From: Trueperaceae bacterium
GTDB lineage: Bacteria > Deinococcota > Deinococci > Deinococcales > Trueperaceae
Assembly (NCBI GenBank): GCA_965213925.1
Contig: OZ243927.1
Span: forward strand, 4,416,001 to 4,480,000
Reading direction: 5' to 3'
Length of the DNA stretch: 64,000 bases
How positions within the stretch are numbered: the first letter of the stretch is position 1; each line of letters opens with the position of its first letter. Both the position numbers and the translations under genes were made by a program. The notes under the pieces were generated by a model. That model did not search any database, was not told the origin of the DNA, and saw only the letters and a list, made by a program, of their open reading frames with translations. Shown piece by piece: positions 4,738-57,846 of this stretch.

Positions 4738-4739
4738 AA

Positions 4740-4784
4740 GCAACGAGCAATGAGTGTAAAAGGCTTCTACTCATTGCTCGTTGC
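4740..4784. terminator. 16-bp perfect hairpin, probable terminator of the serine hydrolase gene
   Basis: GCAACGAGCAATGAGT (4740-4755) / ACTCATTGCTCGTTGC (4769-4784), just past the stop at 4791. Confidence 0.7.
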
Positions 4785-4790
4785 TCATTG

Positions 4791-33539: not shown

Positions 33540-33687
33540 CTTGCGCTCTTTTCTTTGGGAGTTAGGTCGTTCGGAGCTGGAGTGGTCAAACAGCTAGGTA
33601 AAGTCACGTTATCCACCGAGTCAGACGGACTAGGTAGCGTGTAACTCGGCAGAAGCGGTGTAGGAAATTCGTCACAACCGACACGTC

Positions 33688-36341: not shown

Positions 36342-37204
36342 CGGTTCGCCTCCGCGGGTGCTGTAGCGTCTATCGGTGCGTCTTTGTAGGTATCCTCTTT
36401 ACAGGTGTCCTCCGGCGCGTAGAGCGCGGGCGGGTGAGGAGTGCGCGCCGCGTTCTGCCGCTCCCACAGCTTGGCGTAGCGGATAAAGTCGCTCGTCGCC
36501 TTGAGCAGCGAATGCATGAGCCCGCGCGTTCCCAAGCGAAAGCCCCCTCTGGCGACGTAGCTCCACAAAAAGCGCAGCACGGGCTTCACGGCGATGTCCG
36601 CCGCCGTCGCCCGCTTCCCCAAACGGTCGAGTTCAGCGGCTTCTAGGGTCGCGTAGCGGTTGAACAGCCCGACGAACTCGTCCACCGTATGCCCGTTCCA
36701 GTGGAGCAACACCCCCTCGACCGGAATGGACACGCCGGGAAAGCGCACCTCTTCGTGCACGTTCATCGCCGTGTCATAAGCGCTCTCCTTGCGGTTATAG
36801 AGCCGCACGAAGCTTCGCCTCTTGCTAGGTCGCGACTCGTTCGGCAGCAAGACGCCCAAAAAGTCGCCGCGGCGGTCTAAGGCGTAGGCGTTACGGGCGT
36901 CCAGCGGTCCGCGCAGCACCTCCTGCAAGGACGCGGACAGCTCCGGCGTAGCGACCTCGTCCGCGTCCAAAAAGAGCACCCAGTCGTGCTGAGCCAGCGC
37001 CGCCCCCCGGTTGCGCTGCTTCGAAAAACCGAGCCAAGGCTGCTCGAACACGTTCGCGCCCAAAGACGCCGCGATCTCCTTTGTATCGTCCGAGCTGCCC
37101 GAGTCGATGACGAGCACCTCGTCCGCCCAGCGCACGCTGCGGATGCAGCGCCCGATGAACTGCGCTTCGTTCTTCGTCATGATTACGACGCTGAGAGGGG
37201 TCAT
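36338..37204 (-). CDS. Glycosyltransferase family 2 (WaaE/KdtX-like)
   Basis: SVVIMTKNE, DSGSSDDT, WLGFSKQRN, LDADE, VHE. Confidence 0.9.
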   Translation of the reverse strand: MTPLSVVIMTKNEAQFIGRCIRSVRWADEVLVIDSGSSDDTKEIAASLGANVFEQPWLGFSKQRNRGAALAQHDWVLFLDADEVATPELSASLQEVLRGPLDARNAYALDRRGDFLGVLLPNESRPSKRRSFVRLYNRKESAYDTAMNVHEEVRFPGVSIPVEGVLLHWNGHTVDEFVGLFNRYATLEAAELDRLGKRATAADIAVKPVLRFLWSYVARGGFRLGTRGLMHSLLKATSDFIRYAKLWERQNAARTPHPPALYAPEDTCKEDTYKDAPIDATAPAEANR

Positions 37205-37293
37205 ATCAACCTCTTTTGACCGCACGGTTGGTCCACAAGATTAAAGTCACTGACCGAGATGCCACAGATGGCGATGTCGCTGACACGAAGCTC

Positions 37294-38250
37294 CTAACTC
37301 TGCACTTTCGTAGACCCCAAGCGCCTCAACCAGCGCGCTTTCACAATCGTTAAACCCAGACGGACGCTGTTCTTGGCGTAGCGCAGCCTTGGATAGTGCG
37401 CCAACGCCTCCTGGTGGAGCTGCGACGCTTCCTTGTCGTCGCCCGCATAGAGCAGCGAGCGCCACGCCGTATGAAGATACGCCCGCCCCAAAGCTCGCCC
37501 CTTGAGGTGCTGCTGCGCCGCGGGCACATCCCGAAAAGATTTATCGATGATTCGGCGGAGCGTAGGCAGGAGCGACTGATAGTTCTTGTGCTTGTTGTCG
37601 GCGTGCTGGCGGTAGGCAGCTAGGGGTTCTTTAACTACCGCAAAGCGGTAGCGCGCGGTGATGCGAATCCACATCTCCCAGTCTTCGGCGTAGCGAAAGC
37701 TCTCGTCAAACGTGCCGACCTCTCCGAAGAGTCGGCGGCGCACCAGCGGCGTGCTGCCGCAGCGCACCAGGTTGTACTCGACCATCTGCGCCCACACGTC
37801 GCCCTCTAAATGCTGCGTCATCACCTTGCCGATAGGCTCGCCCGCCGCGTTGATATACGAAATCCAGGTGTCCACCAAGCCCACCTCAGGGTCAGCCTCC
37901 ATGCGCGCCACCTGCTTCTCGAGCTTCGTCGGCTGCCACAGGTCGTCCGCGTCCAGAAAGGCGACGTACTCGCCCCTTGCCGCCGCCACGCCCGTGTTGC
38001 GCGCCGCCGCCGCGCCGCCGTTGGGTCTCGAGACCAGCTTGACCCTCGGGTCGGGGTGCGCCGCCGCCCAGCTCGCCGTATTGTCCTTGCTACCGTCGTC
38101 TACGATGAGCACTTCGAAGTCTTGGAGCGTTTGTGCCAAGACGCTCTCGACGGTGTGCGGAAGAAAGCGCATGGCGTTGTAGGCGGGGATGACGACCGAC
38201 ACTTTGGGAATAATATGTGGAGCTTTGGAAGAACTTGGCTGATAGGGCAT
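37294..38250 (-). CDS. Glycosyltransferase family 2
   Basis: VSVVIPAYN, VDDGSKD, ARNTG, FLDADD, EDWEMW. Confidence 0.92.
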   Translation of the reverse strand: MPYQPSSSKAPHIIPKVSVVIPAYNAMRFLPHTVESVLAQTLQDFEVLIVDDGSKDNTASWAAAHPDPRVKLVSRPNGGAAAARNTGVAAARGEYVAFLDADDLWQPTKLEKQVARMEADPEVGLVDTWISYINAAGEPIGKVMTQHLEGDVWAQMVEYNLVRCGSTPLVRRRLFGEVGTFDESFRYAEDWEMWIRITARYRFAVVKEPLAAYRQHADNKHKNYQSLLPTLRRIIDKSFRDVPAAQQHLKGRALGRAYLHTAWRSLLYAGDDKEASQLHQEALAHYPRLRYAKNSVRLGLTIVKARWLRRLGSTKVQS

Positions 38251-38390
38251 GGTGTCCTTTTACGTGAGTCTCAACACTGTCGCTGGCACGACCTTAATCT
38301 CAGAGGTTGCGCGTCCCGCGAAGTCCGGTGTGAGTAGCGGACCGGTCCACGTGAAGTTTAACTTTTTTCAAACTAAGATATGCTGAGTGA

Positions 38391-38598
38391 TACCAATTCC
38401 GATTGATTCTCAATCAATCCGAGCGAAAAAGTCTTCAACCGGGCGTATCATGCCGTCGTAATGTCGCTCATATTGGCTATTCGTTGATGTTACCACCGGT
38501 TGAGGACTCTCCTGCGAGCAGGAACAAATATACGGATGGAGCGTATGGACTATCACCGAACGCTTCTCTCGGTGATAGGGAATTAAGCGGAATCCGTA
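38391..38598 (-). repeat. Deinococcus-type ~210-bp MITE-like structured repeat, copy 1
   Basis: Ends TACCAATTCCG / CGGAATCCGTA; reverse-complement match to 52824-53040; several internal hairpins. Confidence 0.88.
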
Positions 38599-38607
38599 TG
38601 ACCCCGC

Positions 38608-39660
38608 TCACTCGGCACCGCTCACAACCTCTCGAAAAGCTTGCCATGTTTCCTTGCCGACCTCTCCCCACTCGAGCGCGTTCAGGTCCGCGCGTTGCCC
38701 CGCGACCCCTCGCGCCCACGCCTGACTCGCCCGTAGGTCCGCCGCGCTCAGCATTCCACGGTACATCTTAACCCAAGCCTCACCCACTTTCCCCTGCAAC
38801 TCCTCCATCGCACCCATGTTAGGGACCAGGATAGGTGTATCGAGCGAGAGCGCCATCAGCGCGCTGCCCGAATGCAAGATGTCCTTGTAGGGAAGAACCG
38901 CGACGTCCGCAGCGGCGAAGTAGTATTGTAGGTCGTCATCCGGGATAAACGTCAAGTGGAGCCGCACGCGCGGGTCATCCTGCGCTGCTTTCTCTATCTC
39001 ACGCTTTAAGCGGGGCGTGCGAGGATTGCCCGCGACCAAAAGCAGCGTCTGCTCGTCGTCAAGTTCGCGGAAGGTGCGCACAAGGTGGGGCACGTTTTTG
39101 TACCTTCTGATCTGCCCGAAGTGCAAGACAACCCCGACCTCTTCCGGTATCCCCAGGCGCTCGCGGGCAACTCGTTTTGACACCTGCACCTGATGCGAGT
39201 CGCGGTAATGACCTCTCGGAATCACGAACGAGGGCAGCGTTTTGAGGTGCGGAAACTTTGCGGTAGCCTCATCTGCTGCCGTTTGGCTGAGCGCAATCCA
39301 GCCGTCTAAGAGTTTGACGTAAGGGCGGTAGAAAAACGGCTCTAGGTAGGGATGATAGCGCTCGTGCGGGCGGAGGTTATGCACTGTCCACACGAGCTTA
39401 ACTCCTTTGGACTTAGCCTCTTTCAGCCAGCCCAATATCTCAGAGGTGTGCTTCATGATTTTGAGGGGGCTGCGCGTGTTGAAGTGGGTGTCGGGCCAGT
39501 GGATGTGCCACACGTCGTAACCGTCTACGCTAAAACGCCCCTCAGACATCGCCTGGGTCGAGAAGTCGTCTATCTCGACGCCAAAGGGTTTCATGCTGCC
39601 GTACAAGAGGTCCATGTGGTTATTCGTGGGGATGGAGGCGGGCCAGGCGAGTATTCGCAT
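38608..39660 (-). CDS. Glycosyltransferase family 4-like
   Basis: HIHWP, VWTVHNL.PH, FGQIRRYKNV, D..VLPY....SG. Confidence 0.88.
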   Translation of the reverse strand: MRILAWPASIPTNNHMDLLYGSMKPFGVEIDDFSTQAMSEGRFSVDGYDVWHIHWPDTHFNTRSPLKIMKHTSEILGWLKEAKSKGVKLVWTVHNLRPHERYHPYLEPFFYRPYVKLLDGWIALSQTAADEATAKFPHLKTLPSFVIPRGHYRDSHQVQVSKRVARERLGIPEEVGVVLHFGQIRRYKNVPHLVRTFRELDDEQTLLLVAGNPRTPRLKREIEKAAQDDPRVRLHLTFIPDDDLQYYFAAADVAVLPYKDILHSGSALMALSLDTPILVPNMGAMEELQGKVGEAWVKMYRGMLSAADLRASQAWARGVAGQRADLNALEWGEVGKETWQAFREVVSGAE

Positions 39661-39691
39661 ACTTTTCCTCTTCAGATGTGTTGGACTTAGC

Positions 39692-40903
39692 TTAGAGCGC
39701 CTCGATAAGCGCGACGAACTGTTCGTTCAAAACATCGTTATTGAACTCCCGCTCGACTTTAGCGCGGGCGGCGCGGCTCATATCGCTCAAAGTCTGAGGG
39801 GACGAGAGAAGCTCGAGCAGCCCCCTAGCGAGTGCGTCACTGTCGCGCTCGGGCACTAGATAGCCCGACACGCTATGTTCGATGAGTTCGGGGATGCCGC
39901 TATGCCAGGTGCTCAGCACGGGCGTTCCTTGCGCCATCGCCTCCATGATTGCCACTGGGATGCCCTCCATATCGCCGTTTTGCGCCGTGACGCTCGGCGC
40001 GAGCAGCACGTGAGCTTCGGAAAGCGTTTCGAACACGACGCGGCTCGGCTGAGGTCCTAAAAACCTAACGTGTGTCTGCACCCCTAAATGTGTCGTCTCA
40101 GCTTCTAGCACTTTGCGCAACGGACCGTCACCGATGATCGTATAGACGAGGTCGGGGTGCTGTGTAATAACGGCAGGCAGGGAGCGAATCGCGTAGATGA
40201 GCCCCTTTTTCTCTACCGCCCTCGCGACGCTCAAAAGCTTGACGGGCTCTCTCAGCGGCGTAGGATTAAAGGCGATCTCCGAACACGCGACGCCCATGTG
40301 GTGCACGCGCATCTTTTCAGACGGGAAGCCTTTCTCCTCGAGCCGCGCTTTCCACAGCTCGTTGACGGTTAGGAACAGGTCGCCCTCCTCCCTAAGCTGA
40401 GCGTAAGCGTCAGGGTGCGCGTCCAAGTAGGCGGAAACGTCAACCCCGTGAAAGATAGTAACGATTTTTCCAGAGAGTGCCCCGGCACCCTTGAGCGCCG
40501 CCGCCTCAGCGCCGTTGTAGCCGAAGTGACAGCAGACTACGTCGAAGGGCGGCTTCTGATTGAGAAAGGTCACACCAGCGGCAAAGAGCCGCGCGCTCCA
40601 GCGTCCTCTCAGGTAATCTCGAGGGCGCAGCACGCTCAAGTAAGCGGGGATGTTCGCGGGGTGGCGCACACACGACCTCAACATAAGCGCCGCCACGCTG
40701 AAGAGTCGCTCGAGCTTACGGCGCTCACCGGGCAGATAGAGGACCCTCACCCGCTCCGCCACCGGCACGTTGGCGCTAGGGTCCGCGCTAGGTTGCGCAA
40801 CCACGCTCACCTCGTGCCCAGCTTGGGCGAGCGCCTCGATCTGGCGGTAGACAAACGTCAAAGAGGTCAAGGGAAACTCCCTCAGCACGAACGCTATCTT
40901 CAC
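39692..40903 (-). CDS. Glycosyltransferase family 4, WcaL-like
   Basis: FP..S.TF, HFG, FHGVDVS, R.VEKKG, DMEGIPVAIMEAMA. Confidence 0.9.
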   Translation of the reverse strand: MKIAFVLREFPLTSLTFVYRQIEALAQAGHEVSVVAQPSADPSANVPVAERVRVLYLPGERRKLERLFSVAALMLRSCVRHPANIPAYLSVLRPRDYLRGRWSARLFAAGVTFLNQKPPFDVVCCHFGYNGAEAAALKGAGALSGKIVTIFHGVDVSAYLDAHPDAYAQLREEGDLFLTVNELWKARLEEKGFPSEKMRVHHMGVACSEIAFNPTPLREPVKLLSVARAVEKKGLIYAIRSLPAVITQHPDLVYTIIGDGPLRKVLEAETTHLGVQTHVRFLGPQPSRVVFETLSEAHVLLAPSVTAQNGDMEGIPVAIMEAMAQGTPVLSTWHSGIPELIEHSVSGYLVPERDSDALARGLLELLSSPQTLSDMSRAARAKVEREFNNDVLNEQFVALIEAL

Positions 40904-40909
40904 GGCTAT

Positions 40910-42247
40910 TTACGCTTTCACATGGTCTTGAGCTGACGGTTTACTTGCGGGGTCTAGGTCAAACACGTAGTCCAAAGCGTCGAAGGATGCCTCAGCCCGC
41001 CGATGCTCGCTCAGAACACCTTCAAAAAGCTGCTTATTGAAACTCGAGTAGTGCTCGACAAAACGCTCAATCTTACCTGCTAGTTCGTCGCCTGTAACGG
41101 TATCGATGTCCGAAACATACTTACCGATGCCGAAGCGACGAAAGAGTTCGGTCGTTTTGAACTCGTAAGAGATAGGCACGACGGGCGTACCTCTCGTAAG
41201 TGACAAAATAGCGACGTGCAGCCGCGTTGCTATGACAAGGTCAAAATCTGCCAGCTTAGCTTGCAAATCGAAAGGATCGTTGAAGTCAGAATTGACGGTT
41301 ACGCTCGCCTGATAGACTGGGTCTAGCTCGTCGAATACGCGCTGCGCGACTTTGGCGTCGTCCACCCAGTATTCAGGTATGCCCTGACAGGTGGAAATAA
41401 AGGTCACTTGCGCCCCGTAGGTGTCAATGACGAATTCCGTCGCCTGCCGGACGGCTTTCAGATATCTCTTCATACCGACGTCGGGCGAATCGTTTTTGAA
41501 ATACGGCCAGTGCCGCACCGATATGGCTACACGCTTAGGACGTAACGCTATAGCTTCACCCGCTTCCGCCACCTCTTTCTCTACCGCCGTAACGAAAACA
41601 GCGTCGGCTGACACCTGCATGTTGTCCGCCGTGTTCACGCTCTTGCAGTGTTCGTAAGAAGCCTCGTCGCGAAGCAGAATAAGGGCACACTTGGGAAACA
41701 CCTGACTCAGCATCTCTCGGTTGCGCTCCTCTGTAAAGGGTCCCATCGACTGAGTAAAGAGGACGACGGGGCGACCTGTGGCGAGCGAGAAACTTAGTTC
41801 GTCGTACCTCCTCTTGATGGAGTAGTTCTCGACGATGTAGGTCCCGCCCGTACCAATAATCATATCTACACTTACGTAATCGTCGAAAATCGCTCTCACC
41901 CTTGCTGGCATGAGCGCGCGGGCTAGGTTGATCCAGCCCCGCCTGAGCAGGGCGAGCGAAAGCACAGCCCGCACACGCTGCCCCTCTTGTTTTATCTTTC
42001 GACGTATCTTGCTGACTAGACCGGGCTGCGCCGCCGACCCCTCCCCCCCAAACGACCTCAAAACGTACTGTAGCTGGCTCTTGATCGTCAGGTCTGGGTA
42101 GTAGCGACGCGCCGCCTCTGCCTGGGAATCGTAGATCACAAACTCCGTATCGGGCCCGTATTTCTGCTCCATGCCCGCGATCATAGACTTGAGTATGGCG
42201 GCGTCGCCGGCGTTGAGCATGACTATATTTGTGATAGCGATTTTCAC
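40910..42247 (-). CDS. Polysaccharide pyruvyltransferase, WcaK-like
   Basis: NAGDAAI, GGTY, QSMGPF, LRDEAS, ADAVF, TRLH, YEFKT. Confidence 0.9.
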   Translation of the reverse strand: MKIAITNIVMLNAGDAAILKSMIAGMEQKYGPDTEFVIYDSQAEAARRYYPDLTIKSQLQYVLRSFGGEGSAAQPGLVSKIRRKIKQEGQRVRAVLSLALLRRGWINLARALMPARVRAIFDDYVSVDMIIGTGGTYIVENYSIKRRYDELSFSLATGRPVVLFTQSMGPFTEERNREMLSQVFPKCALILLRDEASYEHCKSVNTADNMQVSADAVFVTAVEKEVAEAGEAIALRPKRVAISVRHWPYFKNDSPDVGMKRYLKAVRQATEFVIDTYGAQVTFISTCQGIPEYWVDDAKVAQRVFDELDPVYQASVTVNSDFNDPFDLQAKLADFDLVIATRLHVAILSLTRGTPVVPISYEFKTTELFRRFGIGKYVSDIDTVTGDELAGKIERFVEHYSSFNKQLFEGVLSEHRRAEASFDALDYVFDLDPASKPSAQDHVKA

Positions 42248-42276
42248 GTGATGAAGCCTCCGTTAGCGGTTCGCGC

Positions 42277-43743
42277 TCAGCCTTTAGCTTTGAGAGGGCG
42301 GCGTAGCGGGAGCGTCGTGCGAACGAGGTCGAACACTCTGAGCGACAAGGCTGGGGCGATCAGCCTTATGCTCGCTAAATAGGACGTGCCGCCCGCGAGC
42401 GCGAGCAGCGCGAGCCTGACGGCGGGCGCGAGGTTAGCGGACAGCGTGAGCGTAGCGTAGAGCGCGCCGACCATGAGGAGCGAAGCAGTGAGCGGACCTA
42501 GAAAGCGTCTGAGATAGTCCTTGATGCTTATGTTGGTGAGCCGCTTGACCATGATCACGCTGACGGGCGAAAGAATGTATGCGCGGATTGTATAGGCTGC
42601 CGCGACCGCTTCGATGCCGAAGCGCACCACGCTCAGAAACGAAACCAGGTTGATCACCGCCGAGAGCGCGCCGTAAGCGACCTGCCACTGAGGTTTCCCG
42701 TAGGCTTGAACGACGACGAAATTGAAACTGAGCGAAGTCTGAATCATGCCCGCGCCGCAGAGAATTTGCAGCACGAGCACGCTCTTTGTCCACTCCTCGC
42801 CGAACACGAGAGGCACCAGCAGAGGTGCGACAAAGGCGAGACCTATAAAGGCAGGGAACGCCAAGAAGCTAACCGTCTCTATGAGGGAATAGAACGCCCT
42901 CCTAGTACGGGCAAGCTCCGTTTGCGTACGCGAAATAGCCGAGAACGCGACCTCGGAGAACGACGAGGAGAAAAGCTCCGCAACGATATAGTAAGCGCGG
43001 TAGGCTACGCCGTAAAAGCCGAGCGCGGTGGGACCAAGGAACGCGCCGATCAAGAGGTCATCGCTACGCCGGTTGATAAACGTCAGCGCCCGTGTGCCGA
43101 ACGAGTTGACTTCAAAAGCGAAGAGGTCTACGAAGTGCTTCCTCGAAAACGCGAACCTCGGTCTCCAGGAACTTAAAAACCACAAGGTTGCTGTGGACAG
43201 GACGCTCGAGATAAGTTGCTGAGCGACGAGGCTCCACACCCCGAAACCTGCGAACGCCATACCCACCCCGACAGCGCCGCCCACAACTAACCCCAGCAGG
43301 GTCCGCACCGCGAGCGCTCTATACGCAAGCTCTCGCTGCAAATAAGCGTTCTGCACGTTGACAAATGCGTTGATGATAAAGACGAGCGAGAGCCAGCGTA
43401 AGATAGCGCCGAGTTCTGGCTGGTTAGATAGATGGGCGATGAGGGGCGCAAGCGCGAAGACGAGCGCTGTGAGTAGAGCGCCCGTGACGATATTGCTCCA
43501 GAAGGCGGTGTCTAGGTGCTCTGGTTCGAGCTTGGGGCGCTGCACGAGCGCTTTGACGAAGCCGTTGCCCAGAAAGATATCGGCTATAGCGATAAATACG
43601 CCCGCGTAGGCGACGAGGCCGAACGCTTCCGGTCCGAGGAGCCGGGCGAGGATGAAAAAGACGAGCAAACCCCAGAACCGGGCAGCCCAGCGCTGCACAA
43701 GAGACCAGACGACTCCGACAATCGTTCTTTCTTTAAGGCTCAT
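42277..43743 (-). CDS. Wzx flippase (PST family)
   Basis: LARLLGPEAFGL, ALVQR, GFGVWSLV.QQ, DDLLIG..LG..ALGFY. Confidence 0.92.
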   Translation of the reverse strand: MSLKERTIVGVVWSLVQRWAARFWGLLVFFILARLLGPEAFGLVAYAGVFIAIADIFLGNGFVKALVQRPKLEPEHLDTAFWSNIVTGALLTALVFALAPLIAHLSNQPELGAILRWLSLVFIINAFVNVQNAYLQRELAYRALAVRTLLGLVVGGAVGVGMAFAGFGVWSLVAQQLISSVLSTATLWFLSSWRPRFAFSRKHFVDLFAFEVNSFGTRALTFINRRSDDLLIGAFLGPTALGFYGVAYRAYYIVAELFSSSFSEVAFSAISRTQTELARTRRAFYSLIETVSFLAFPAFIGLAFVAPLLVPLVFGEEWTKSVLVLQILCGAGMIQTSLSFNFVVVQAYGKPQWQVAYGALSAVINLVSFLSVVRFGIEAVAAAYTIRAYILSPVSVIMVKRLTNISIKDYLRRFLGPLTASLLMVGALYATLTLSANLAPAVRLALLALAGGTSYLASIRLIAPALSLRVFDLVRTTLPLRRPLKAKG

Positions 43744-44023
43744 TATTCGTGGGTCTCATCTCAGAAATGGGAGTAGAGGTGGGTGCGCCATAAGGCTCGA
43801 GCTTACGGTAGCGAGTCGCCTCCTCGAGGTGCCACCGCCCAGCGCATTTAACCATAAGCCACAGTTCATGTCTACGCGGTCGGACGACCGTAAGGACATA
43901 GCCAGAATGGAAAATGCTATCTTGAATCCGCGGAGCAAACGCCGCGTTTAATACGGAGTGTCTAAATTTTGCGGTACGCCGCGACCCACTCGAACCCCTG
44001 GAAAGCCCTATAAGGAGCGACCC

Positions 44024-44845
44024 ATGAACGTTGGACACATGCTACGTGAGGTCAAGACTAAAGCCAGCAGTACGTACATGCGCCTGAGTTACAGACGAAA
44101 GGCTAGAGTCTACTGCGTCGGAACGGCGAAAAGCGGCACGCACTCAATTGCTGAGATGTTTGACGACACCGTTCGTTCGGGGCACGAGCCTGAATACCGC
44201 GAGGTCATCCGGAAAATCTTCGAGATTGAAGAGGGGAAGATGTCAGAGTCGGCGGCCCTGTCCTACGTCCGAGCCAGAGATAAAAGGCTCTGTTTAGATA
44301 TCGACTCGTCTCAGCTCAACTTCTTTATCCTTAGCTACCTTTTAGAGGCGTTTCCGGATGCGCGCTTTATCCTCACCATCCGAGACTGTTACTCCTGGTT
44401 GGACTCTTTTATCAACCACTCGCTGCGCCGAGATGCCAGGAAAGAATGGATTGCACTTAGGGATTACCGGTTTCAAGCGCACACCTTGTCACACCCTCCA
44501 GAGGAGCGGGCGCTCGAAGAGAGGGGGCTATACACGCTCGACGGCTACCTCTCATACTGGGCGCACCATAACCACAAGGTTTTATCTTCTATTCCACAAG
44601 ACCGCCTTATGGTGCTCAAAACAAAGGAGATAACGCAGTCGGCTCAGGCTATCGCTGCGTTTACCGGTCTGCCGAAAGAAACGATACTGCTAGAGAAATC
44701 TCACGCCTTCAAAAACCCCGAGAAGTACAACGTCTTACGAGAGATCAAAGAGACCCATCTCGAGGCGAAGGTACACCTGCACTGCGGCGACCTCATGAGC
44801 AGATTCTTCCCTGAGATTCGTTCCGTACGTGATACGGAAGTTTGA
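44024..44845 (+). CDS. Sulfotransferase family protein
   Basis: 5'-PSB loop VGTAKSGTHS; 3'-PB motif FPDARFILTIRD..SW..S; AAGGAG SD. Confidence 0.82.
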   Translation: MNVGHMLREVKTKASSTYMRLSYRRKARVYCVGTAKSGTHSIAEMFDDTVRSGHEPEYREVIRKIFEIEEGKMSESAALSYVRARDKRLCLDIDSSQLNFFILSYLLEAFPDARFILTIRDCYSWLDSFINHSLRRDARKEWIALRDYRFQAHTLSHPPEERALEERGLYTLDGYLSYWAHHNHKVLSSIPQDRLMVLKTKEITQSAQAIAAFTGLPKETILLEKSHAFKNPEKYNVLREIKETHLEAKVHLHCGDLMSRFFPEIRSVRDTEV

Positions 44846-45098
44846 GGGACGCATTAGATGCGAGATGAAGCAACGAGTCCCAGCACGGTGGAGCGGGCGC
44901 GAATATACGGCGCTTCCACGTAACGTTACTACATTTCTCCGCAGGCATCATCCCCAAATGTGCGTGTCAAGCGATATTTTTTGAAGTGAGAGTATCTCAA
45001 ACCAGATGATACCTGCTATAAAAAATGCTTTCAGAAACGGTGTGAGCTGAAGTTGTGGCGGGACTCAAAGTGGAGGCGGAGACTGCCAAGGCAGTTGC

Positions 45099-46073
45099 TC
45101 AATCCTTAATTGTCGGAGCACTTTCTACTCGCGCCGTTGCACCATTCACTATTAAGCTGTCCTGCGGCAGAAAACGCACCTCACGCTCGAGCCACACCCC
45201 AAAGCGCTCCTGCACCACCTCTTGAATATGCGCCATCAGCGCCTTGACGTCTTGCGAGGTCGCCTCGCCGCCGTTCTCGATCCAGTTGGCGTGCGTGGGG
45301 CTCACCACCGCACCGCCGACCTTATAGCCTTTGAGCCCGGCTTGGTCGATATACCAGCCTGCGGGCTCGCCCCCCTCGGGCTGCTTAAAGACGCTGCCGC
45401 TCGTGTGACGCTGCAAGGGCTGCTTGGCAGCGCGCTTTTTGAGCACCTCTTTTTGCCGCGCCTTGATCGCGTCTACGTCGTCTCGTTTTTCGGCGCGAAA
45501 GGTCGCGTCTAGGACCCAGTGAGTGTGCAAGAGGTCGCTGTGGCGGTAGCGCAACCCGGCTTCGCTGGCGCTGAGCGTTTGGATGCGCCCTGTGGCCAGC
45601 TCGAGCGTCCGCACAGATTCTAAACGTTCGCTGATCGAGACGCCGCTCGCCCCGCCGACGCCGGCGTTAATGGCGACGCCTGCGCCCACCGTGCCGGGAA
45701 TGCCAATTAGAAACTCGAAGCCAGAGAGACCCGCTTGCCCCGCCTTGACCGCGAGTTTAGGAAGCGGACAGCCCGCCTCCGCGCGGACGCGCCCCCCGTC
45801 GGCGTCCACCGTGACCTCGTCGAAGGAGCTGCGCAGACAGACGACCACGCCGGGGACGCCCGTGTCGTCGATGAGCGTGTTCGAGCCGCGCCCTAAGATG
45901 GTGAGGGGCAAGCAGGCGTCTTTAGCGTACTCGTAAGCGGCGATGAGTTCGTCGGCGCTGTCGGGCTCTAAGAGCACCTCCGCTTCGCCGCCGATGTTCC
46001 AGGTCGTGTAGGGCGCGAGCGCGTGGTGGTAGCGGGGCGCGTTGACGTAGTCGGGAGGAGCGAGTTCAGGCAT
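45099..46073 (-). CDS. murB: MurB-like enolpyruvyl reductase (paralogue within the EPS locus)
   Basis: TTWNIGG, LGRGSN, GIPGTVG...NAG, YRHS, GSVFK, HANWI.N, LEREV. Confidence 0.88.
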   Translation of the reverse strand: MPELAPPDYVNAPRYHHALAPYTTWNIGGEAEVLLEPDSADELIAAYEYAKDACLPLTILGRGSNTLIDDTGVPGVVVCLRSSFDEVTVDADGGRVRAEAGCPLPKLAVKAGQAGLSGFEFLIGIPGTVGAGVAINAGVGGASGVSISERLESVRTLELATGRIQTLSASEAGLRYRHSDLLHTHWVLDATFRAEKRDDVDAIKARQKEVLKKRAAKQPLQRHTSGSVFKQPEGGEPAGWYIDQAGLKGYKVGGAVVSPTHANWIENGGEATSQDVKALMAHIQEVVQERFGVWLEREVRFLPQDSLIVNGATARVESAPTIKD

Positions 46074-47400
46074 AGCTGATGTCGCCGCCTAAACTCCGCA
46101 GCTTCTGCACGAAACCGTTGTAGCCGCGCTCGACTTGCCAAGCATCTTGCACGTACGTCGTGCCGTCCGCGGTGAGCCCCGCGAGCGTGAGCGAGACGCC
46201 CGCGCGCAGATCGAGCGCCTTGACCTCCGCGCCGCGCAGGGGTGCGCCGCCCGCGATCTTGAGCAAGTTGCCGTCGACCTCGCGCTGCGCGCCCATCTTG
46301 GCGAGTTCGTCGGCGTAGCCGTAGCGCCCTGGAAAGCGCAGGTCGACGATGCGCGATTCGCCCCGCGCGCACGCGCCGTAGAGCGCGAAGAGGGGCTGCA
46401 TGTCCGAGTTGATGCCGGGGTAGGGTCCGGTGCTGATCTCGACGGGGAAGCAGCGCCCGCCGCGGACGATGAGGCTGTTTTCGCCCCTGTAGAACTTCGC
46501 GCCGCTCTCGCGCAGGTGGATGAGGGGCACCTCTAAATCTTGGGCGGGAAAGTTGACGATCTCGACGCTGCCGTGCGTCACCACCGAGCCGATAAGCCAG
46601 GTGATCGCCTCCATGTTGTCCGCGATGACCGTGTGCTGCGTGCCCGAGAGGGACTCCGAGCCGATGATCTCGATGTGCTCTTGCCCGAACACCTTGATGC
46701 GCGCGCCCATCCCCCTTAAAAATTCGATGAGGTCTAAAATTTCGGGGCGGATGTGCGGGTTCCAGACGCGCGTGATGCCCTCCGCCAGACTTCCGCAAAT
46801 AATCGCATTTTCGGTCGCGCCCGTCGAGCGTATGGGCAAGTAGATGTCGTTGCCCCGCAAACGCCCCGGCGCGCTCGCGCAGAGCGTGTCGCCTTCGGTC
46901 CAGACCTCCGCGCCGAGGCGGCGCAGCACCATCTCGTGCAGGTCGAACTTGCGCTCGCCCAGTTTGCAGCCACCCGGCAGCGGCACCTTGCCCTCACCGA
47001 GACGCGCCGTGAGCGCCCCTAAGATCAGCAGCGTGTTCCTGATCGAGCGACCCGACCACTCGAGCGTTGCGTGGGGCGCGCCCGCCTCTTCGCCTATCGT
47101 GATCGTTTCGCTGCCTGGGGCGCACGTCTTGCCGAGGGCGCGGAGCATCTCCACGTGGACTTGGGCGTCGAGCAACCCGGCTGGGTAGTTGCGCAGCACG
47201 ACCCGTTCGTCCGTTAAGAGGGAAGCGGCGAGCAGCCTGAGCACGCTGTTTTTCGCGCCGCTTACGTGGACTGTGCCCTCGAGCCGCGACATCCCCACCG
47301 CGTAGGTCGTCCGCTCGGGCTGCGCCGACGCCGTGTGCGGCTGCGAAGCCCGGTCTTCAGCTGTATCTACCTTTTCTGTCACTGCGGTGTCTTGTGGCAT
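46066..47400 (-). CDS. murA: MurA-like enolpyruvyl transferase (paralogue within the EPS locus)
   Basis: SGAKNS, LPGGCKLGER with catalytic Cys, STGATEN, YPGINSDMQP, DLRAG, ERGY; AGGAG SD before ATG 47400. Confidence 0.9.
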   Translation of the reverse strand: MPQDTAVTEKVDTAEDRASQPHTASAQPERTTYAVGMSRLEGTVHVSGAKNSVLRLLAASLLTDERVVLRNYPAGLLDAQVHVEMLRALGKTCAPGSETITIGEEAGAPHATLEWSGRSIRNTLLILGALTARLGEGKVPLPGGCKLGERKFDLHEMVLRRLGAEVWTEGDTLCASAPGRLRGNDIYLPIRSTGATENAIICGSLAEGITRVWNPHIRPEILDLIEFLRGMGARIKVFGQEHIEIIGSESLSGTQHTVIADNMEAITWLIGSVVTHGSVEIVNFPAQDLEVPLIHLRESGAKFYRGENSLIVRGGRCFPVEISTGPYPGINSDMQPLFALYGACARGESRIVDLRFPGRYGYADELAKMGAQREVDGNLLKIAGGAPLRGAEVKALDLRAGVSLTLAGLTADGTTYVQDAWQVERGYNGFVQKLRSLGGDISYA

Positions 47401-47778
47401 CGTTACACTCCTAAAGAAGGATTCTAGCCGTAAACGCGCGCGCATGTCGCGCATAAGTCACATGTCGAGGTCAGTTTTGTGCTGCTTGTTCTGTGCTGCT
47501 TATGGCTAGGTGCCGCGCGGCGCTCTTCTCGCGGCTACATCCCGTGTGCGGAGTTCGCACCTGTTTCCATCATGCAAGCATATGGGTGCTGACAACGTTT
47601 CCTGCGTAGCGGGACCGCTTCATAAGTTGTACTAAGCGCTAGTGAGACCGATCACAGACCCGGAGCGCGACTCGCCCGGCGAGCGGCGCGAGCACCCCCG
47701 AGCGCATCTGTCACACGAATATTTCATATACACAGCGCGGCTTTGCCCCTATTATAAAGCATACCTGAGGGACACCCC

Positions 47779-47900
47779 GCCCTCGGACGCGATGAAACCT
47801 GTTTCGCAATGAGCTTCGGAAGGGAAGCGTAACGCGGCCTTTCCGAAGTTCTCTTGGGCGCTTGAAACAGGCGGAGCAAGTAGCGCAACCGGCCGGGGGC
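47779..47900 (+). ncRNA. c-di-GMP-II riboswitch with an inserted hairpin
   Basis: P1 GCCCTCGG/CCGGGGGC; GGACGCGATGAA; CCTGTTTC/GAAACAGG; loop GGGCGCTT pairing with AGCGC of GGAGCAAGTAGCGCAACCGG, matching the class II consensus with covariation. Confidence 0.82.
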
Positions 47901-48032
47901 ACACCTTTGCTTTCTCACGTCATCTTCTGCGTCTATCCCCTTGCGTTCTCCCTGTGCCCACCTAACCGAGTTGAGCTGAAGCCTGGCTCGCCAGGTCTCA
48001 ACACACTCACCGGGGTCATTTGGAGGCAGAGG

Positions 48033-49943
48033 ATGAAAAGGAACATTCAGGTTGTGAAACGGACGCTGACTCAGTATGCTAAAGGCGTGGTGGCGGCTCT
48101 GTTACTCCTTTTATTCGCGGCGTGCGGCGGCGTAACCCAAGCACCTACTTTGGATACGCTCGCGGCGACCTTGGCGACGAGCGAGCACGGGCTCGTCGTC
48201 GAAGCCGAGGCGTTTCACGCGAAGGCGGCTAAGGGCAAGCACCAGTGGAAAGCGCGCGGCGACGCGATGTACGCCTTGCCCGACGTCAAAACGACCTACA
48301 ACAGCAACTTTACTTTGAGAAGCCCCCGCTTGGACTACCGGATCAGCGTCGAGCAGCCCGGCACCTACTACGTGTGGGTCAAGGGAATGGCGGCCGGCAG
48401 CTCGAAGGGCAGCAGCGACTCGGTACACGTCGGCTTAAACGGCAAAGCGGTAAGGAGCGCCGACCGTATCAGCGGCTTTGGTACCCGCTTCGGTTGGAAA
48501 AAGGGAACGATGGACGGCCCTAGAGCCAAGCTCAAGCTGAGCGCGGGGACCCACACCCTCAACGTCTGGATGCGCGAAGACGGTTTCGCGTTCGATAAGC
48601 TCGTCTTAACCCGCGACGCTAGCGCGAAGCCCGCCGCCGTCATCAAGGCGACCGAAAACGAGCAAGAGGCGACCAGCGGTCCGGCGCTGCCCGTGCCGAG
48701 TAGCAAAGAGAACACAATGAGTTTACCGCGCGTAAAAGCGAAATCTGCGGGCAGCTTTATCGACAGCATCGGCGTGAACACGCACCTGCACTACCAGGGC
48801 ACGGTCTACGACAAACGCTACGAAGACCTTATCAAGCCTAAGCTTTTAGAGCTAGGCGTCCGCCACATCCGCGACGGCGCGTACACCTACGAGGAGGCAG
48901 GGCGCAACACCTTCTTCTACAAGCGGCTCCGCGAGCTAGGCGCGGCGGGCATCGACTTCAACCTGCTCACCTCATTAGAGACCCCCTATAACGACGCCAC
49001 GGACTACAGCAAGTTGGACGACGTCGTCTCCTGGACGGACGGCGCGGTCACTTCGTTCGAGGGCATCAACGAGCCCGACTTGCAAGGCATCAGCGGTTGG
49101 GTCAACCTCACCAGAGACGCGCAGAAGAAACTCTACGGCACCGTAAGGGGCAACCCGGCGCTCAAGGACGTAAAAGTTTTAGGTCCGTCGCCCGTATGGA
49201 AGGCGAAAGACTTGGGCGACTTGAGCCGCTACATGGACTACGGCAACACCCACCCTTACCCCGGCGGTAAGATGCCGACTGGCAGCGAGTACGGTCAGAG
49301 CACCCAAACCAGCATGGTCAAAGCCTCCAGAAACAGCGGCGTCAAACCCGTCATGTTCACCGAAACGGGCTATCACAACGCCCTCAAAACCGACAACGAT
49401 CACGCACCGACCTCCGAAGCGGCGACCGCCAAGTACCTCCCCCGGATGCTCCTGGCGCACTTCAACATGGGCGTGCCGCGCACCTACCTATACGAACTCA
49501 TCGACAGCAAGTCCAAAGGGCGCAGCACGGACCCCGAGGCGTCCTTCGGGCTCTTGCGCAACGACGGGTCCGAAAAGCCCGCCTTTAGAGCGGTGGAGAA
49601 CCTCATCGACTTGCTGGAGGACTCCGGCACCTTCACGCCCGGCGCGCTCAACTTCTCGCTGAGCGGCAGCGCGGACGACGTCCACCAGACGCTCCTGCAG
49701 AAGCGCGACGGCACCTTCTACTTAGCGCTCTGGTCGGCGAAGGAGAGCTGGGACCGCGACTCGAGAGAAGACGTCCGCGTGAACGCGCAAAACGTCACCG
49801 TGACGCTCGGTTCAGACGTTAAGAACGTGACCTTACATACCCTAAACGGCGCGGGGCGCATGTCCAAAAGAGCAGTGTCCTTACAGAACGGCTTGGTCGA
49901 GCTTAAGGTCGGTGACAGCGTGACGGTGCTCGAGCTTCGTTAA
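48033..49943 (+). CDS. Lipoprotein glycoside hydrolase, clan GH-A (GH5/GH39-like), with an N-terminal CBM-like beta-sandwich
   Basis: Lipobox LFAAC; EAE..REDG..FDK domain; GVNTH, NEPD acid/base, HPY, TETG nucleophile, FGLLRNDGSEKPAF. Confidence 0.85.
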   Translation: MKRNIQVVKRTLTQYAKGVVAALLLLLFAACGGVTQAPTLDTLAATLATSEHGLVVEAEAFHAKAAKGKHQWKARGDAMYALPDVKTTYNSNFTLRSPRLDYRISVEQPGTYYVWVKGMAAGSSKGSSDSVHVGLNGKAVRSADRISGFGTRFGWKKGTMDGPRAKLKLSAGTHTLNVWMREDGFAFDKLVLTRDASAKPAAVIKATENEQEATSGPALPVPSSKENTMSLPRVKAKSAGSFIDSIGVNTHLHYQGTVYDKRYEDLIKPKLLELGVRHIRDGAYTYEEAGRNTFFYKRLRELGAAGIDFNLLTSLETPYNDATDYSKLDDVVSWTDGAVTSFEGINEPDLQGISGWVNLTRDAQKKLYGTVRGNPALKDVKVLGPSPVWKAKDLGDLSRYMDYGNTHPYPGGKMPTGSEYGQSTQTSMVKASRNSGVKPVMFTETGYHNALKTDNDHAPTSEAATAKYLPRMLLAHFNMGVPRTYLYELIDSKSKGRSTDPEASFGLLRNDGSEKPAFRAVENLIDLLEDSGTFTPGALNFSLSGSADDVHQTLLQKRDGTFYLALWSAKESWDRDSREDVRVNAQNVTVTLGSDVKNVTLHTLNGAGRMSKRAVSLQNGLVELKVGDSVTVLELR

Positions 49944-53040: not shown

Positions 53041-53541
53041 TTACTCCTCGACCTCGATGACCTCGCCTAAGTTTTCCAAGCTCGACTTGTAGAGGTGTAG
53101 CGCCAAGTCCTGCACTGCGCTGATCGCCTCGCTGTTGCGCAGGGCGCTGTCTACGCGGCTGTTGGCGACGGCGAGGCTCGAGGCTAGCACCTCAGGAAAG
53201 ATGGGCCACGGTCCCTCAAAAGGTCCGTCGTCCGCATATTGCTGGCTCACGCCTTCGTTCGTTATCTGCGCGGGCTGCTCTCGCTCGGGCACGGTGCGAC
53301 TAGGCGCAGACCCGTTCGTGCTGACAGACCCTCTCAACTTCGAGAGCGCCGCTTCGCTCGCTCTACGCTCGGCTTCGCGCTTGTTGTTACCTTCACCCTT
53401 GCCGTAGACCTCGCCTTGGATGATCACGTCGCTCACGAAGGTCGGTTCGTGCTCGGGTCCGGTATTTTTGGTGTCGAATTTGGGCTTGGCGAGCCCCGAC
53501 TGCTTGCAGTGCTCGATAAGCACGCCTTTGGGATGTTGCAT
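53041..53541 (-). CDS. Stand-alone double-stranded RNA-binding domain protein
   Basis: HPKGVLIE..Q..GL..P.F...TGPEHEPTF...G.G.NKREAE..A...AL, plus a separate helical C-terminal domain. Confidence 0.85.
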   Translation of the reverse strand: MQHPKGVLIEHCKQSGLAKPKFDTKNTGPEHEPTFVSDVIIQGEVYGKGEGNNKREAERRASEAALSKLRGSVSTNGSAPSRTVPEREQPAQITNEGVSQQYADDGPFEGPWPIFPEVLASSLAVANSRVDSALRNSEAISAVQDLALHLYKSSLENLGEVIEVEE

Positions 53542-54136: not shown

Positions 54137-54255
54137 GAGGAAAGAGGTTGCGATGTTGCTCGGAACGCCGACGCCTTGCTCTTTACGTAAGGTGATGTGA
54201 TATTCTTTGCAAATGCTTGTTCAGTCCCTCTCACCTCTCACCTCAGCTCACCCGC

Positions 54256-55707
54256 ATGTTTGACGACTACAGACCCGGCGGCTTCTTCGACGAGGCGTTT
54301 CGCACCCCGGATGACCCGAGGGAGCACTACAGCAAGATCGTTTCGGGCTTTGGCGCGTATGGCGCTGACGAGTTCGGGCGGCGACGCGCGCTCATCGACC
54401 TCACGCTCCGCAATCAAGGCATCACCTTTACCGTTTACGGTGACGAAGCGGGAACCGAGCGCACCTTCCCCTTCGACCCCTTTCCGCGCGTGATTCCTGC
54501 GGACGAGTGGGCGCACCTAGAGCGCGGGCTCATCCAGCGCGTCCGCGCGCTCAACCTCTTTTTAGATGACGTTTACCACGACCAAGAAATCCTCAAAGAC
54601 GAGGTTATCCCGCGCCACCTCGTTTTGAGCAACGACAACTTTCGCCCGCAAGCGCAGGGCATCGACGTACCGCACCGCGCCTACACGCACATCGTCGGCT
54701 GCGACCTCATCCGCGACGAGGAGGGGACCTACCGCGTTTTAGAGGACAACCTGCGCAACCCGAGCGGCGTCTCGTATATGCTCGTCAACCGCAATGTGAT
54801 GGCGCGGTCCTTCCCCAAACTCATGGCGGGGCGGGGCGTGCGCCCAATTTCGCACTACACCTCGGCGCTCTTCGAGTGCTTGAGCAGCCTCTCGCCGAGA
54901 GACGTGGCGACGCCGACCATCGTCGTGCTGACGCCGGGGCAGTACAATAGCGCCTACTACGAGCACGCCTTCCTAGCGCAGCAGATGGGCGTCGAACTCG
55001 TCGAAGGGCGCGACCTCTTCGCCGAAGACGGGCGCGTCTGGATGCGCACGACGCGGGGCAAAGAGCAAGTGGATGTCATCTACCGCCGCATCGACGACAA
55101 CTTTTTGGACCCTTTAGCCTTCCGTAAGGAGTCGATGCTGGGCGTGCCGGGGCTCGTGGACGTGTACCGCGCAGGGCGCGTGGCGCTCGCCAACGCTGTC
55201 GGCACGGGCATTGCGGACGACAAAGCGATGTACGCTTATGTGCCTAGAATTATCGACTACTACTTGAATGAAGAGCCCGTCTTGCCCAACGTCGAGACCT
55301 ACTTGGGGAGCGACCCGGAGAAGCTCGAGTACATCTGCAATAACGCCGCCGACCTCGTCATCAAAGAGGTGGGCGGCGCGGGGGGCTACGGGATGCTCAT
55401 CGGTCCTGAAGCGGACAAAGAAACCTGCGAGAAATTCGTCGAGCGCGTGCGCGAAACGCCCAGTAACTACATCGCGCAGCCCGTCCTCAAACTCTCGCGC
55501 CACCCTACCTACTACGCCGACAACCACGCCTTCGAGCCCTGCCACGTGGACTTGCGACCTTACATTCTAGTGGGCGAAGAGATCACCGTCGTGCCGGGAG
55601 GACTGACCAGAGTCGCCCTCAAGCGTGGCTCCTTAGTCGTCAACTCCTCACAAGGGGGCGGCTCGAAGGACACGTGGGTGCTGGCGGACGAGGGCGAGGT
55701 AGCATGA
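54256..55707 (+). CDS. Circularly permuted type 2 ATP-grasp protein
   Basis: QGITFTVY, GLIQRVRALN, DLIR..VLEDNLRNPSG, YRRIDD, GGYG, VNSSQGGGSKDTW. Confidence 0.93.
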   Translation: MFDDYRPGGFFDEAFRTPDDPREHYSKIVSGFGAYGADEFGRRRALIDLTLRNQGITFTVYGDEAGTERTFPFDPFPRVIPADEWAHLERGLIQRVRALNLFLDDVYHDQEILKDEVIPRHLVLSNDNFRPQAQGIDVPHRAYTHIVGCDLIRDEEGTYRVLEDNLRNPSGVSYMLVNRNVMARSFPKLMAGRGVRPISHYTSALFECLSSLSPRDVATPTIVVLTPGQYNSAYYEHAFLAQQMGVELVEGRDLFAEDGRVWMRTTRGKEQVDVIYRRIDDNFLDPLAFRKESMLGVPGLVDVYRAGRVALANAVGTGIADDKAMYAYVPRIIDYYLNEEPVLPNVETYLGSDPEKLEYICNNAADLVIKEVGGAGGYGMLIGPEADKETCEKFVERVRETPSNYIAQPVLKLSRHPTYYADNHAFEPCHVDLRPYILVGEEITVVPGGLTRVALKRGSLVVNSSQGGGSKDTWVLADEGEVA

Positions 55708-55711
55708 GCCT

Positions 55712-56887: not shown

Positions 56888-56940
56888 ATGACCCATCAGC
56901 CAGCAGACAACCGCAATACCAACGAAACCAGGGGGGTCCC

Positions 56941-57786: not shown

Positions 57787-57846
57787 ATTTCTCCTAGCCC
57801 TCGGTGGTTAGATAAAAAAGACTGATGGAGAGGCGATCCGCCTCTC

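Follow-up and report, generated by a model that had tools for sequence, protein, structure and literature searches.

What purpose could a second set of MurA- and MurB-type enzymes serve beside a cluster of exopolysaccharide genes? The question is raised by a stretch of 64,000 nt from the Trueperaceae bacterium assembly GCA_965213925.1 (contig OZ243927.1, positions 4,416,001 to 4,480,000; hereafter the window), in which genes for an accessory MurA-type enolpyruvyl transferase (murA2) and an accessory MurB-type flavin reductase (murB2) adjoin each other. Both proteins carry the catalytic residues of their families, the genome holds separate housekeeping copies, the pair belongs to a distinct clade and its relatives recur in a polysaccharide context. 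The gene pair exists as described, and represents a widespread variant, so far uncharacterised, of an enzyme pair already known. Judged from the sequences, the pair probably provides a dedicated route from phosphoenolpyruvate (PEP) and a UDP-sugar to a 1-carboxyethyl (lactyl) ether sugar destined for the polymer and not for peptidoglycan.

The accessory pair and the housekeeping copies

The initial annotation had described coupled murA-like and murB-like genes, and the two are found as minus-strand open reading frames (ORFs) with an overlap of 8 nt (ATGCCTGA) and matches to the expected families; murB2 is translationally coupled to murA2 in the window. The five diverged motifs that had been quoted (GERKFDLH, RSIRNT, VWNPHIRPEI, HTSGSVFKQP and AGVAINAGVG) are all present in the translations. 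The murA2 ORF is open to 47454 (46066-47454, 462 aa), with a probable start at Met19 (47400), which agrees with the 444-aa form (P0003) from the protein search. MurA2 matches PF00275 over its full length (224.1 bits, profile positions 4-417 of 417) and exceeds the cut-off of NF006873 (381.5 bits; cut-off 297), and it falls below that of the murA equivalog TIGR01072 (368.2 bits; cut-off 392.7). MurB2, comprised of an FAD_binding_4 domain (PF01565, 72 bits) and a MurB_C domain (PF02873, 115 bits), passes both the MurB equivalog NF010480 (298.8 bits; cut-off 259) and TIGR00179 (221 bits; cut-off 144.5). An ORF-calling artefact is ruled out by the full-length family matches of both genes. A consensus scan gave three weak promoter-like sites around the pair and no terminator there scoring above shuffled sequences.

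Separate housekeeping copies, which had been named as the first thing to look for, exist in this genome (4.75 Mb, 96.9% complete). Three of its proteins match TIGR01072, namely the housekeeping MurA (C1:1930232-1931464, 468.4 bits), the window copy at about 368 bits and an AroA-like protein at 67.1 bits. The housekeeping MurA has as named relatives proteins of Truepera radiovictrix (72%) and of metagenome-assembled genomes of Trueperaceae or Deinococcales, which marks the organism as a Trueperaceae-like member of Deinococcota. TIGR00179 has two matches, the window copy and C1:3768694-3769371, and the second murB is held in a division and cell wall (dcw) array with the order rsmH-ftsI-murF-mraY-murD-ftsW-murG-murC-murB-(214-aa ORF)-ftsA-ftsZ. 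This murB (L006 10569-11459) scores 411.7 bits against the Deinococcus-type MurB model NF011245. MurB2 is a different gene from the dcw-linked, vertically inherited murB, the products being 36% identical, and MurA2 shares 33% identity with the genome's own MurA. The reported absence of dcw genes near the pair was borne out, the dcw cluster lying about 690 kb away in the contig.

The catalytic Lys, Cys and Asp of MurA and the Ser and Glu of MurB, judged at first sight to be retained, are in place (K68, C163 and D351 in MurA2; S227 and E298 in MurB2). With E. coli numbering transferred via an alignment to H. influenzae MurA (2RL1), residues K68, N69, R139, C163, R168, D351, R417 and R443 of MurA2 correspond to K22, N23, R91, C115, R120, D305, R371 and R397, and the equivalents of the catalytic Lys22, Cys115, Asp305, Arg120, Arg371 and Arg397 are all present. 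Since the Cys that is the target of fosfomycin is kept, MurA2 is a normal Cys-type MurA. In a survey of 69 clade members against 128 other MurAs, K22, N23, D49, R91, C115, R120, H125, S162, G164 and D305 were invariant in all 69, as were R331, D369, L370, R371 and R397.

In the E. coli structure 1UAE, UDP-N-acetylglucosamine (UDP-GlcNAc) is contacted by Arg120, Asp305, Asn23, Arg91, Asp123, Leu124, Lys160, Ser162, Val163, Gly164 and Val327 (PMC13750019, Table 1). MurA2 is identical at eight of these 11 positions (R168, D351, N69, R139, D171, L172, S210 and G212), has one conservative change (T211 for Val163; nine positions agree if it is counted as retained) and differs at two (I208 for Lys160 and R373 for Val327). 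At about ten positions of the pocket, 67-69 of the 69 members share a residue that is specific to the clade. The substitutions are A92 to N, V161 to R (mostly P or V in other MurAs), V163 to T, F302, P303 and T304 to I, N and S, V327 to R (I or V in 108 of 128 other MurAs), N330 to G, R232 to N (R in 79% of other MurAs), and A185 and A186 to P and H; in addition, the P121 position is K in 57 of the 69. MurA2 itself has the complete signature set (R209, T211, I348-N349-S350, R373, G376 and N280), each residue of which is found in 69 of 69 members. These comparisons suggest that the chemistry and the use of a nucleotide sugar as substrate are conserved and that the pocket around the sugar is remodelled. 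We take R120, D123, S162 and G164 to bind the UDP part of UDP-GlcNAc specifically.

In MurB2, R177, S227 and E298 lie in YRxS, GSxF and LExEV motifs aligned with Listeria MurB (3TX1), and presumably correspond to R159, S229 and E325 of E. coli MurB; of 58 accessory MurBs, 58, 58 and 57, respectively, share these catalytic residues. Where MurB2 has its catalytic Ser (S227), all 58 accessory MurBs have Ser, and 11 of 15 housekeeping or second-copy MurBs have Cys. The latter 15 comprise the genome's own copy, ten from relatives (L124-L133) and four from Citrifermentans, Halomonas and Rubripirellula.

A distinct clade in polysaccharide loci

Both proteins are separated from the housekeeping orthologues in phylogenetic trees, whereas branching with them was among the outcomes named beforehand as speaking against a polymer role. 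In a maximum likelihood tree of MurA (82 rows with AroA as the root, from a rapid search with no bootstraps and with several long branches flagged), MurA2 falls in a 25-row clade together with all accessory sequences (Shimodaira-Hasegawa-like approximate likelihood ratio test, SH-aLRT, 98), which lies within two larger clades of rare metagenomic MurAs (39 rows, 99; 43 rows, 100). The housekeeping MurA and seven relatives form a separate clade (SH-aLRT 100), the internal order of which matches kinship. MurB2 groups with the accessory MurBs of one Opitutales and one Balneolaceae locus (SH-aLRT 98), and a branch with a support of 86 (not starred) divides all 24 accessory MurBs from the housekeeping MurB clade (100). 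The accessory MurBs are 28-50% identical to MurB2 (median 32%) and are far more divergent than the MurAs.

The best 120 matches to MurA2 in a search of 5.8 billion proteins show 66-100% identity, and the source names among them include Geobacter sp. M21, Methanosarcina barkeri, Armatimonadota, Syntrophotaleaceae, Vitreimonas and Desulfobacter; proteins named Geobacter, M. barkeri, Armatimonadota and Desulfobacter are 61-72% identical to MurA2, a range that the tight clade keeps over more than ten phyla. In a library clustered at 50% identity, the clade has two full-length representatives (66% and 60%), beyond which come about eight representatives at 42-49% and then the bulk of MurAs at 34-41%. 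A cluster look-up gave almost no names for the ten intermediate representatives.

Among species genomes, 276 of 318 candidate stretches encode a MurA2 relative, and 80 of the 276, with 61-70% identity to the window MurA2, were kept as loci. They come from Pseudomonadota, Bacteroidota, Thermodesulfobacteriota, Planctomycetota, Verrucomicrobiota, Chlorobiota, Balneolota and Armatimonadota, plus one archaeon. Closer to home the clade is rare. When 40 relatives were examined (2 of the same genus, 22 of the same family and 16 of the same order), accessory MurA was present in one only, the sister species G006 of the same genus (86% identity); the best MurA2 match in the others was 31-38% identical in 37, 27% in one and absent in one. 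A MurB2-type gene was found in none of the 40, the sister species included. The clade also occurs on seven plasmid or chromid records at 61-66% identity (Rhizobium gallicum, R. etli, Qingshengfaniella and Agrobacterium). On the 382-kb plasmid NZ_CP042263.1 of Qingshengfaniella alkalisoli (L142 8977-12214), a hypothetical gene, murA2 and murB are followed by a gene for a glycosyltransferase of family 2 (GT2), and the Prokaryotic Genome Annotation Pipeline (PGAP) named the pair as ordinary murA-type and murB cell-wall genes with cell-division Gene Ontology terms. MurA2 and MurB2 thus most likely represent an accessory, horizontally acquired module of patchy distribution.

Genomes of Psychrobacter, Halomonas and Citrifermentans encode both types of MurA, the accessory one at 352-380 bits and a housekeeping one at 565-588 bits. 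M. barkeri (G001) and the planctomycete Rubripirellula obstinata (G005) both keep the accessory pair; apart from AroA, the accessory MurA is their sole PF00275 member, and no murC or mraY scored over the cut-off in these two assemblies, the completeness of which is not stated. R. obstinata (contigs C259, C12 and C13) has a second MurB-like gene at 131.9 bits, just below the cut-off. The M. barkeri case is consistent with the few MurA-like and MurB-like genes in archaea without murein, the role of which is called unclear in an excerpt of PMC10117817.

The neighbourhood survey that had been proposed as a check, in which 1165 neighbouring ORFs were clustered and representatives scanned, found that the pair recurs in polysaccharide loci. 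A same-strand MurB-like gene is located within 3.9 kb of murA2 in 63 of the 80 loci, downstream in 57 and upstream in 6, and in 38 loci the distance is at most 150 nt. At least one polysaccharide assembly family is found nearby in 73 of the 80. Two Wzx families, mostly directly adjoining murA2, occur in 59 loci, a divergent protein of about 391 aa resembling glycosyltransferases of family 4 (GT4) in 43, a TviC-like 4-epimerase in 38, an EpsC/CysE-like hexapeptide acetyltransferase in 32, a TuaD-like UDP-glucose dehydrogenase in 26 and sulfation genes (sulfotransferase, adenosine 5'-phosphosulfate kinase, CysN and CysQ) in 10. Examples of this wider module are L040 4841-9909 and L087 5332-10527. 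The GT4-like protein had no Pfam match at 1e-5, the leads to its identity being the Atlas and a weak match to PF13439; it is a candidate for the transferase of the lactyl sugar.

Some murA2 loci (e.g. L030, L040, L049, L065, L083 and L086) also have an ATP-grasp ligase-like gene (nine loci), a PGA_cap/CapA-like gene (seven) or an AsnB-like amidotransferase gene (four). The products of these genes could amidate carboxyls of the polymer, possibly including the lactyl carboxyl.

The cluster in the window and in the sister species

The Wzx/Wzy exopolysaccharide cluster spans 31968-43743, downstream of the pair, and is comprised of wzx, a pyruvyl transferase gene, five glycosyltransferase genes (33688-40903), wzy and a wzc-like kinase gene, all on the minus strand (Table 1). 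The pair had been placed inside this cluster, which holds in so far as it is on the same strand as wzx and the glycosyltransferase genes and lies at the cluster edge; the sulfotransferase gene, however, has the plus orientation, converging on murB2 and pointing away from wzx, and the pair is therefore a separate two-gene unit that is not part of the wzx operon. A sulfotransferase and a glycoside hydrolase had been given as the flanking genes. The former was recovered, though on the opposite strand to the pair, but for the latter only the C-terminal domain of glycoside hydrolase family 115 (GH115) was matched. GC content is mosaic, with 0.64-0.66 for the pair, 0.52-0.54 for the sulfotransferase and pyruvyl transferase genes and 0.59 for the window. 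Two nucleoside diphosphate (NDP)-sugar dehydrogenases are encoded in the genome outside the window's cluster.

Table 1 Genes of the accessory pair, the exopolysaccharide cluster and other parts of the window
Feature	Coordinates	Strand	Family matches and remarks
murA2, accessory MurA-type enolpyruvyl transferase	46066-47400	-	PF00275, NF006873
murB2, accessory MurB-type flavin reductase	45099-46073	-	324 aa; PF01565 and PF02873, NF010480
GH115 C-terminal-like domain protein	47862-49943	+	PF17829, E 3.6e-12; divergent from murA2
Sulfotransferase	43958-44845	+	PF17784, E 1e-10; PF13469, E 1e-7
Wzx-type flippase (MOP family)	42277-43743	-	PF13440, 299.6 bits; NF007773, 249.7 bits, under the cut-off of 273
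Polysaccharide ketal-pyruvyl transferase (WcaK/CsaB-like)	40910-42247	-	PF04230, 101.6 bits
GT4 glycosyltransferase (WcaL-like)	39692-40903	-	PF00534; TIGR04005, 263 bits, under cut-off
Divergent GT4 glycosyltransferase	38608-39660	-	Counterpart (62% identity) adjoins wzx in the sister species
GT2 glycosyltransferase	37294-38250	-	PF00535, 133 bits
GT2 glycosyltransferase	36338-37225	-	PF00535, 81 bits
Wzy-type polymerase / O-antigen ligase family membrane protein	34893-36341	-	PF04932, 33.5 bits
GT4 glycosyltransferase	33688-34890	-	PF00534, 125 bits; long ORF to 35703 overlaps wzy, GT4 domains begin at residue 282
Wzc-like chain-length regulator / tyrosine autokinase	31968-33539	-	TIGR01007, 115.4 bits, over the cut-off of 108; PF02706, PF13807
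DDE transposase gene adjoining a serine beta-lactamase-family gene	3898-5861		
Aminoglycoside 3-N-acetyltransferase-family gene	16529-17209		PF02522, 260 bits
GluR0-like ligand-gated potassium channel	29860-30903	+	Solute-binding and ion-channel domains (PF00497, PF00060, PF07885)
Lone 166-aa protein with eukaryote-type double-stranded RNA-binding motif	53041-53541	-	PF00035, E 1e-15
Four-gene array	54217-58755	+	Circularly permuted ATP-grasp, alpha-E domain protein, two transglutaminase-like proteins

In the sister species murA2 is kept with the GH115-like gene (76% identity) beside it, as are wzx (52%) and one GT4 gene (62%). At the position of murB2 and the sulfotransferase gene (L135 13561-15865, corresponding to 43958-46073 of the window), it has genes for a pyruvyl transferase and a nitroreductase-family flavoprotein of 370 aa on the opposite strand. 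No homologues of these two genes were found in the 80 related loci, and the idea that this nitroreductase represents a general alternative reductase therefore received no support.

Possible products and known systems

According to the route proposed here, MurA2 would move the enolpyruvyl group of PEP onto a hydroxyl group of a sugar carried by UDP, the likeliest acceptor being UDP-GlcNAc or else a closely similar UDP-N-acetylhexosamine or uronic analogue, and MurB2 would then reduce the vinyl ether with NADPH and FAD to the 1-carboxyethyl (lactyl) ether. The UDP-lactyl sugar may be used by a glycosyltransferase of the cluster; Wzx would then flip the repeat unit and Wzy would carry out the polymerisation. 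The polymer is predicted to bear ketal pyruvate and sulfate as well, and to be strongly anionic. We infer the chemistry, its action at the level of the nucleotide sugar and the link to this particular polymer. The separate copies, the separate clades and the recurrence in polysaccharide loci support the reading of the initial annotation that the pair supplies a lactylated donor for the polymer rather than for peptidoglycan.

Several observations weigh against this proposal. Among the 17 loci without a MurB-like gene, eight have at least 7.6 kb on both sides, and reduction by a dedicated MurB is therefore not universal; the sister species has MurA2 without MurB2, and no accessory MurB is encoded anywhere in its genome. 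The Wzx, the hexapeptide acetyltransferase and the divergent GT4-like gene linked to the clade are missing from the window. None of these three partner families clusters with a window protein, and a hidden Markov model of the GT4-like family found no window protein at E below 1e-3. The window accordingly holds only the bare pair of the recurrent module, adjacent to each other and with assembly genes nearby, and this unit is separated from the wzx operon by the convergent sulfotransferase gene. Finally, MurB2 scores above the cut-offs of the MurB equivalogs and MurA2 has most of the UDP-GlcNAc contacts, so that the two may simply make UDP-N-acetylmuramic acid (UDP-MurNAc), which would be usable for peptidoglycan as well.

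The same chemistry may act on another acceptor, either a UDP-uronic acid or another UDP-sugar that is not UDP-GlcNAc (UDP-glucuronic acid, UDP-galacturonic acid, UDP-N-acetylglucosaminuronic acid or UDP-glucose), which would make the resulting sugar nosturonic-acid-type or glucolactilic-type instead of muramic-type. We regard this as possible, though doubtful. The ten or so clade-specific residues flank ligand-contact or catalytic positions, and the two new invariant arginines, together with the loss of R232, would suit an extra carboxylate; nevertheless, most UDP-GlcNAc contacts are kept, including N23, R91 and D305, the differing K160 is also variable among the comparison MurAs, and the contact table does not tell backbone from side-chain contact for the differing V327. 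The TuaD-like dehydrogenase (26 of 80 loci) and the TviC-like epimerase (38 of 80) often adjoin murA2, as in M. barkeri and Psychrobacter, but such genes are common in polysaccharide loci anyway and the counts are for murA2 loci only. Neither gene is present in the window's cluster; the two NDP-sugar dehydrogenases elsewhere in the genome count in favour of this reading. Lactyl ethers on glucose, glucuronic acid, rhamnose and GlcNAc have been reported in glycans, according to portions of PMC7685785 and PMC5983295.

A bolder version, in which the MurA2 clade is a non-UDP-GlcNAc enzyme that takes UDP-uronic acid from the flanking dehydrogenase and 4-epimerase and is the basis of nosturonic-acid-type sugars, is unlikely. 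In this version the remodelled pocket, with its two new invariant arginines, the loss of R232 and an altered stretch ahead of the catalytic Asp, would accommodate the uronic acid. If it were true, the module would supply the genes long missing for lactyl-uronic sugars in the exopolysaccharides of bacteria and archaea, sulfated ones like the polymer predicted here included, and in the sister species, which has MurA2 without MurB2, the polymer would retain a vinyl ether or have it reduced by the unrelated nitroreductase-family flavoprotein.

It is improbable that the enolpyruvyl group is added at the level of the lipid-linked sugar or the polymer, or that the vinyl ether is left unreduced, with a different role for MurB2. 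The sister species and at least eight well-flanked loci have MurA2 without a MurB-like neighbour, and in the sister species a pyruvyl transferase and the nitroreductase-family flavoprotein stand at the MurB2 position, which would be compatible with such a scheme. However, murB2 is translationally coupled to murA2 in the window and 63 of the 80 loci have a MurB-like gene next to murA2. In addition, R120, D123, S162 and G164, all UDP-GlcNAc contacts in 1UAE (PMC13750019), are invariant or nearly so in the clade, and this favours a UDP-sugar substrate.

A back-up role in peptidoglycan synthesis is unlikely because of the clade context and the presence of the clade where no Mur pathway was found. 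More specifically, a redundant or conditional supply of precursor (under stress, by growth phase or for antibiotic tolerance), like that of the Gram-positive MurA/MurZ pairs, would fit the catalytic residues kept in both proteins, the MurB equivalog scores and the retained fosfomycin-target Cys, but is very improbable in view of the clade members in M. barkeri and R. obstinata without murC or mraY over the cut-off, the polysaccharide context in 73 of 80 loci, the presence of MurA2 in one of 40 relatives, its position apart from the lineage's MurA in the tree and its score under the TIGR01072 cut-off.

The preferred route, from PEP and a UDP-sugar to a lactyl ether for the polymer, extends known chemistry and involves no new principle. 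The pair shares families (PF00275; PF01565 and PF02873) and folds with housekeeping MurA (EC 2.5.1.7) and MurB (EC 1.3.1.98), as well as the predicted two-step chemistry of enolpyruvyl transfer followed by flavin-dependent reduction to a lactyl ether. Unlike these, it is neither in nor near a dcw cluster, belongs to separate clades, has spread horizontally and is found in Wzx/Wzy loci. Recruitment of a MurA homologue outside peptidoglycan is also seen in nikkomycin synthesis, where NikO acts on uridine monophosphate (UMP) and not on a UDP-sugar. An identity like that of NikO (PDB 4FQD) was rejected for MurA2, which scores 126.6 bits to NikO vs. 213-252 bits for 32 MurA chains (best 252.3).

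Ketal-pyruvyl transferases (PF04230; WcaK, CsaB) likewise use PEP to place an acidic, pyruvate-derived group on polysaccharide sugars, but differ from MurA2 in being of an unrelated fold and family. Their product is a cyclic ketal on a lipid-linked sugar, formed without a reduction step, and MurA is handled under peptidoglycan only in the available portion of this review of pyruvate substituents (PMC6801904). The Gram-positive MurA/MurZ (MurAA/MurAB) also represent two MurA paralogues per genome; both supply peptidoglycan, as stated in an excerpt of bioRxiv 10.1101/2023.03.26.534294.

The predicted product, a surface-polymer sugar bearing a 1-carboxyethyl ether, is of the kind known from lactyl-ether glycans of Psychrobacter, E. 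coli, Nostoc and Vibrio. MurNAc is terminal in the lipooligosaccharide core of Psychrobacter arcticus 273-4, and the reference list of the same source cites a Vibrio vulnificus capsule containing muramic acid, as well as isomuramic acid from Proteus penneri (PMC4515632). The lactyl signals given there for MurNAc are a methyl doublet near 1.4 ppm and carbons near 20, 79 and 183 ppm. Lactyl groups are described on rhamnose, glucose and GlcNAc in E. coli O58, O124, O146, O69 and O150 (in part of PMC7685785), and nosturonic acid in the exopolysaccharides of Nostoc and Vibrio alginolyticus (in part of PMC5983295).

In the literature searched we found no gene-to-structure link for lactyl-ether glycans and no enzyme assigned to lactyl-ether sugars outside peptidoglycan. 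A full-text search likewise found no paper characterising a MurA/MurB pair in a polysaccharide locus, though subscription papers may assign such genes. No protein named for P. arcticus 273-4 was among the best 120 relatives of a Psychrobacter MurA2, and blastn searches of complete E. coli genomes with a Psychrobacter murA2-murB2 and a flavobacterial murA2 gave no match, at a divergence for which this search is insensitive. The glycolactilic-acid gene clusters of E. coli O69 and O146 were reportedly treated by Knirel et al. in 2017.

Lactyl-ether sugars are scattered over bacterial O-antigens, capsules, lipooligosaccharides and cyanobacterial slimes, and the clade described here is a concrete candidate for their maker. 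As its members are annotated as ordinary murA and murB, they may mislead metabolic reconstruction, suggesting peptidoglycan in archaea and planctomycetes without the rest of the pathway. The retention of the fosfomycin-target Cys throughout the clade could also matter for the effect of fosfomycin on surface polymers.

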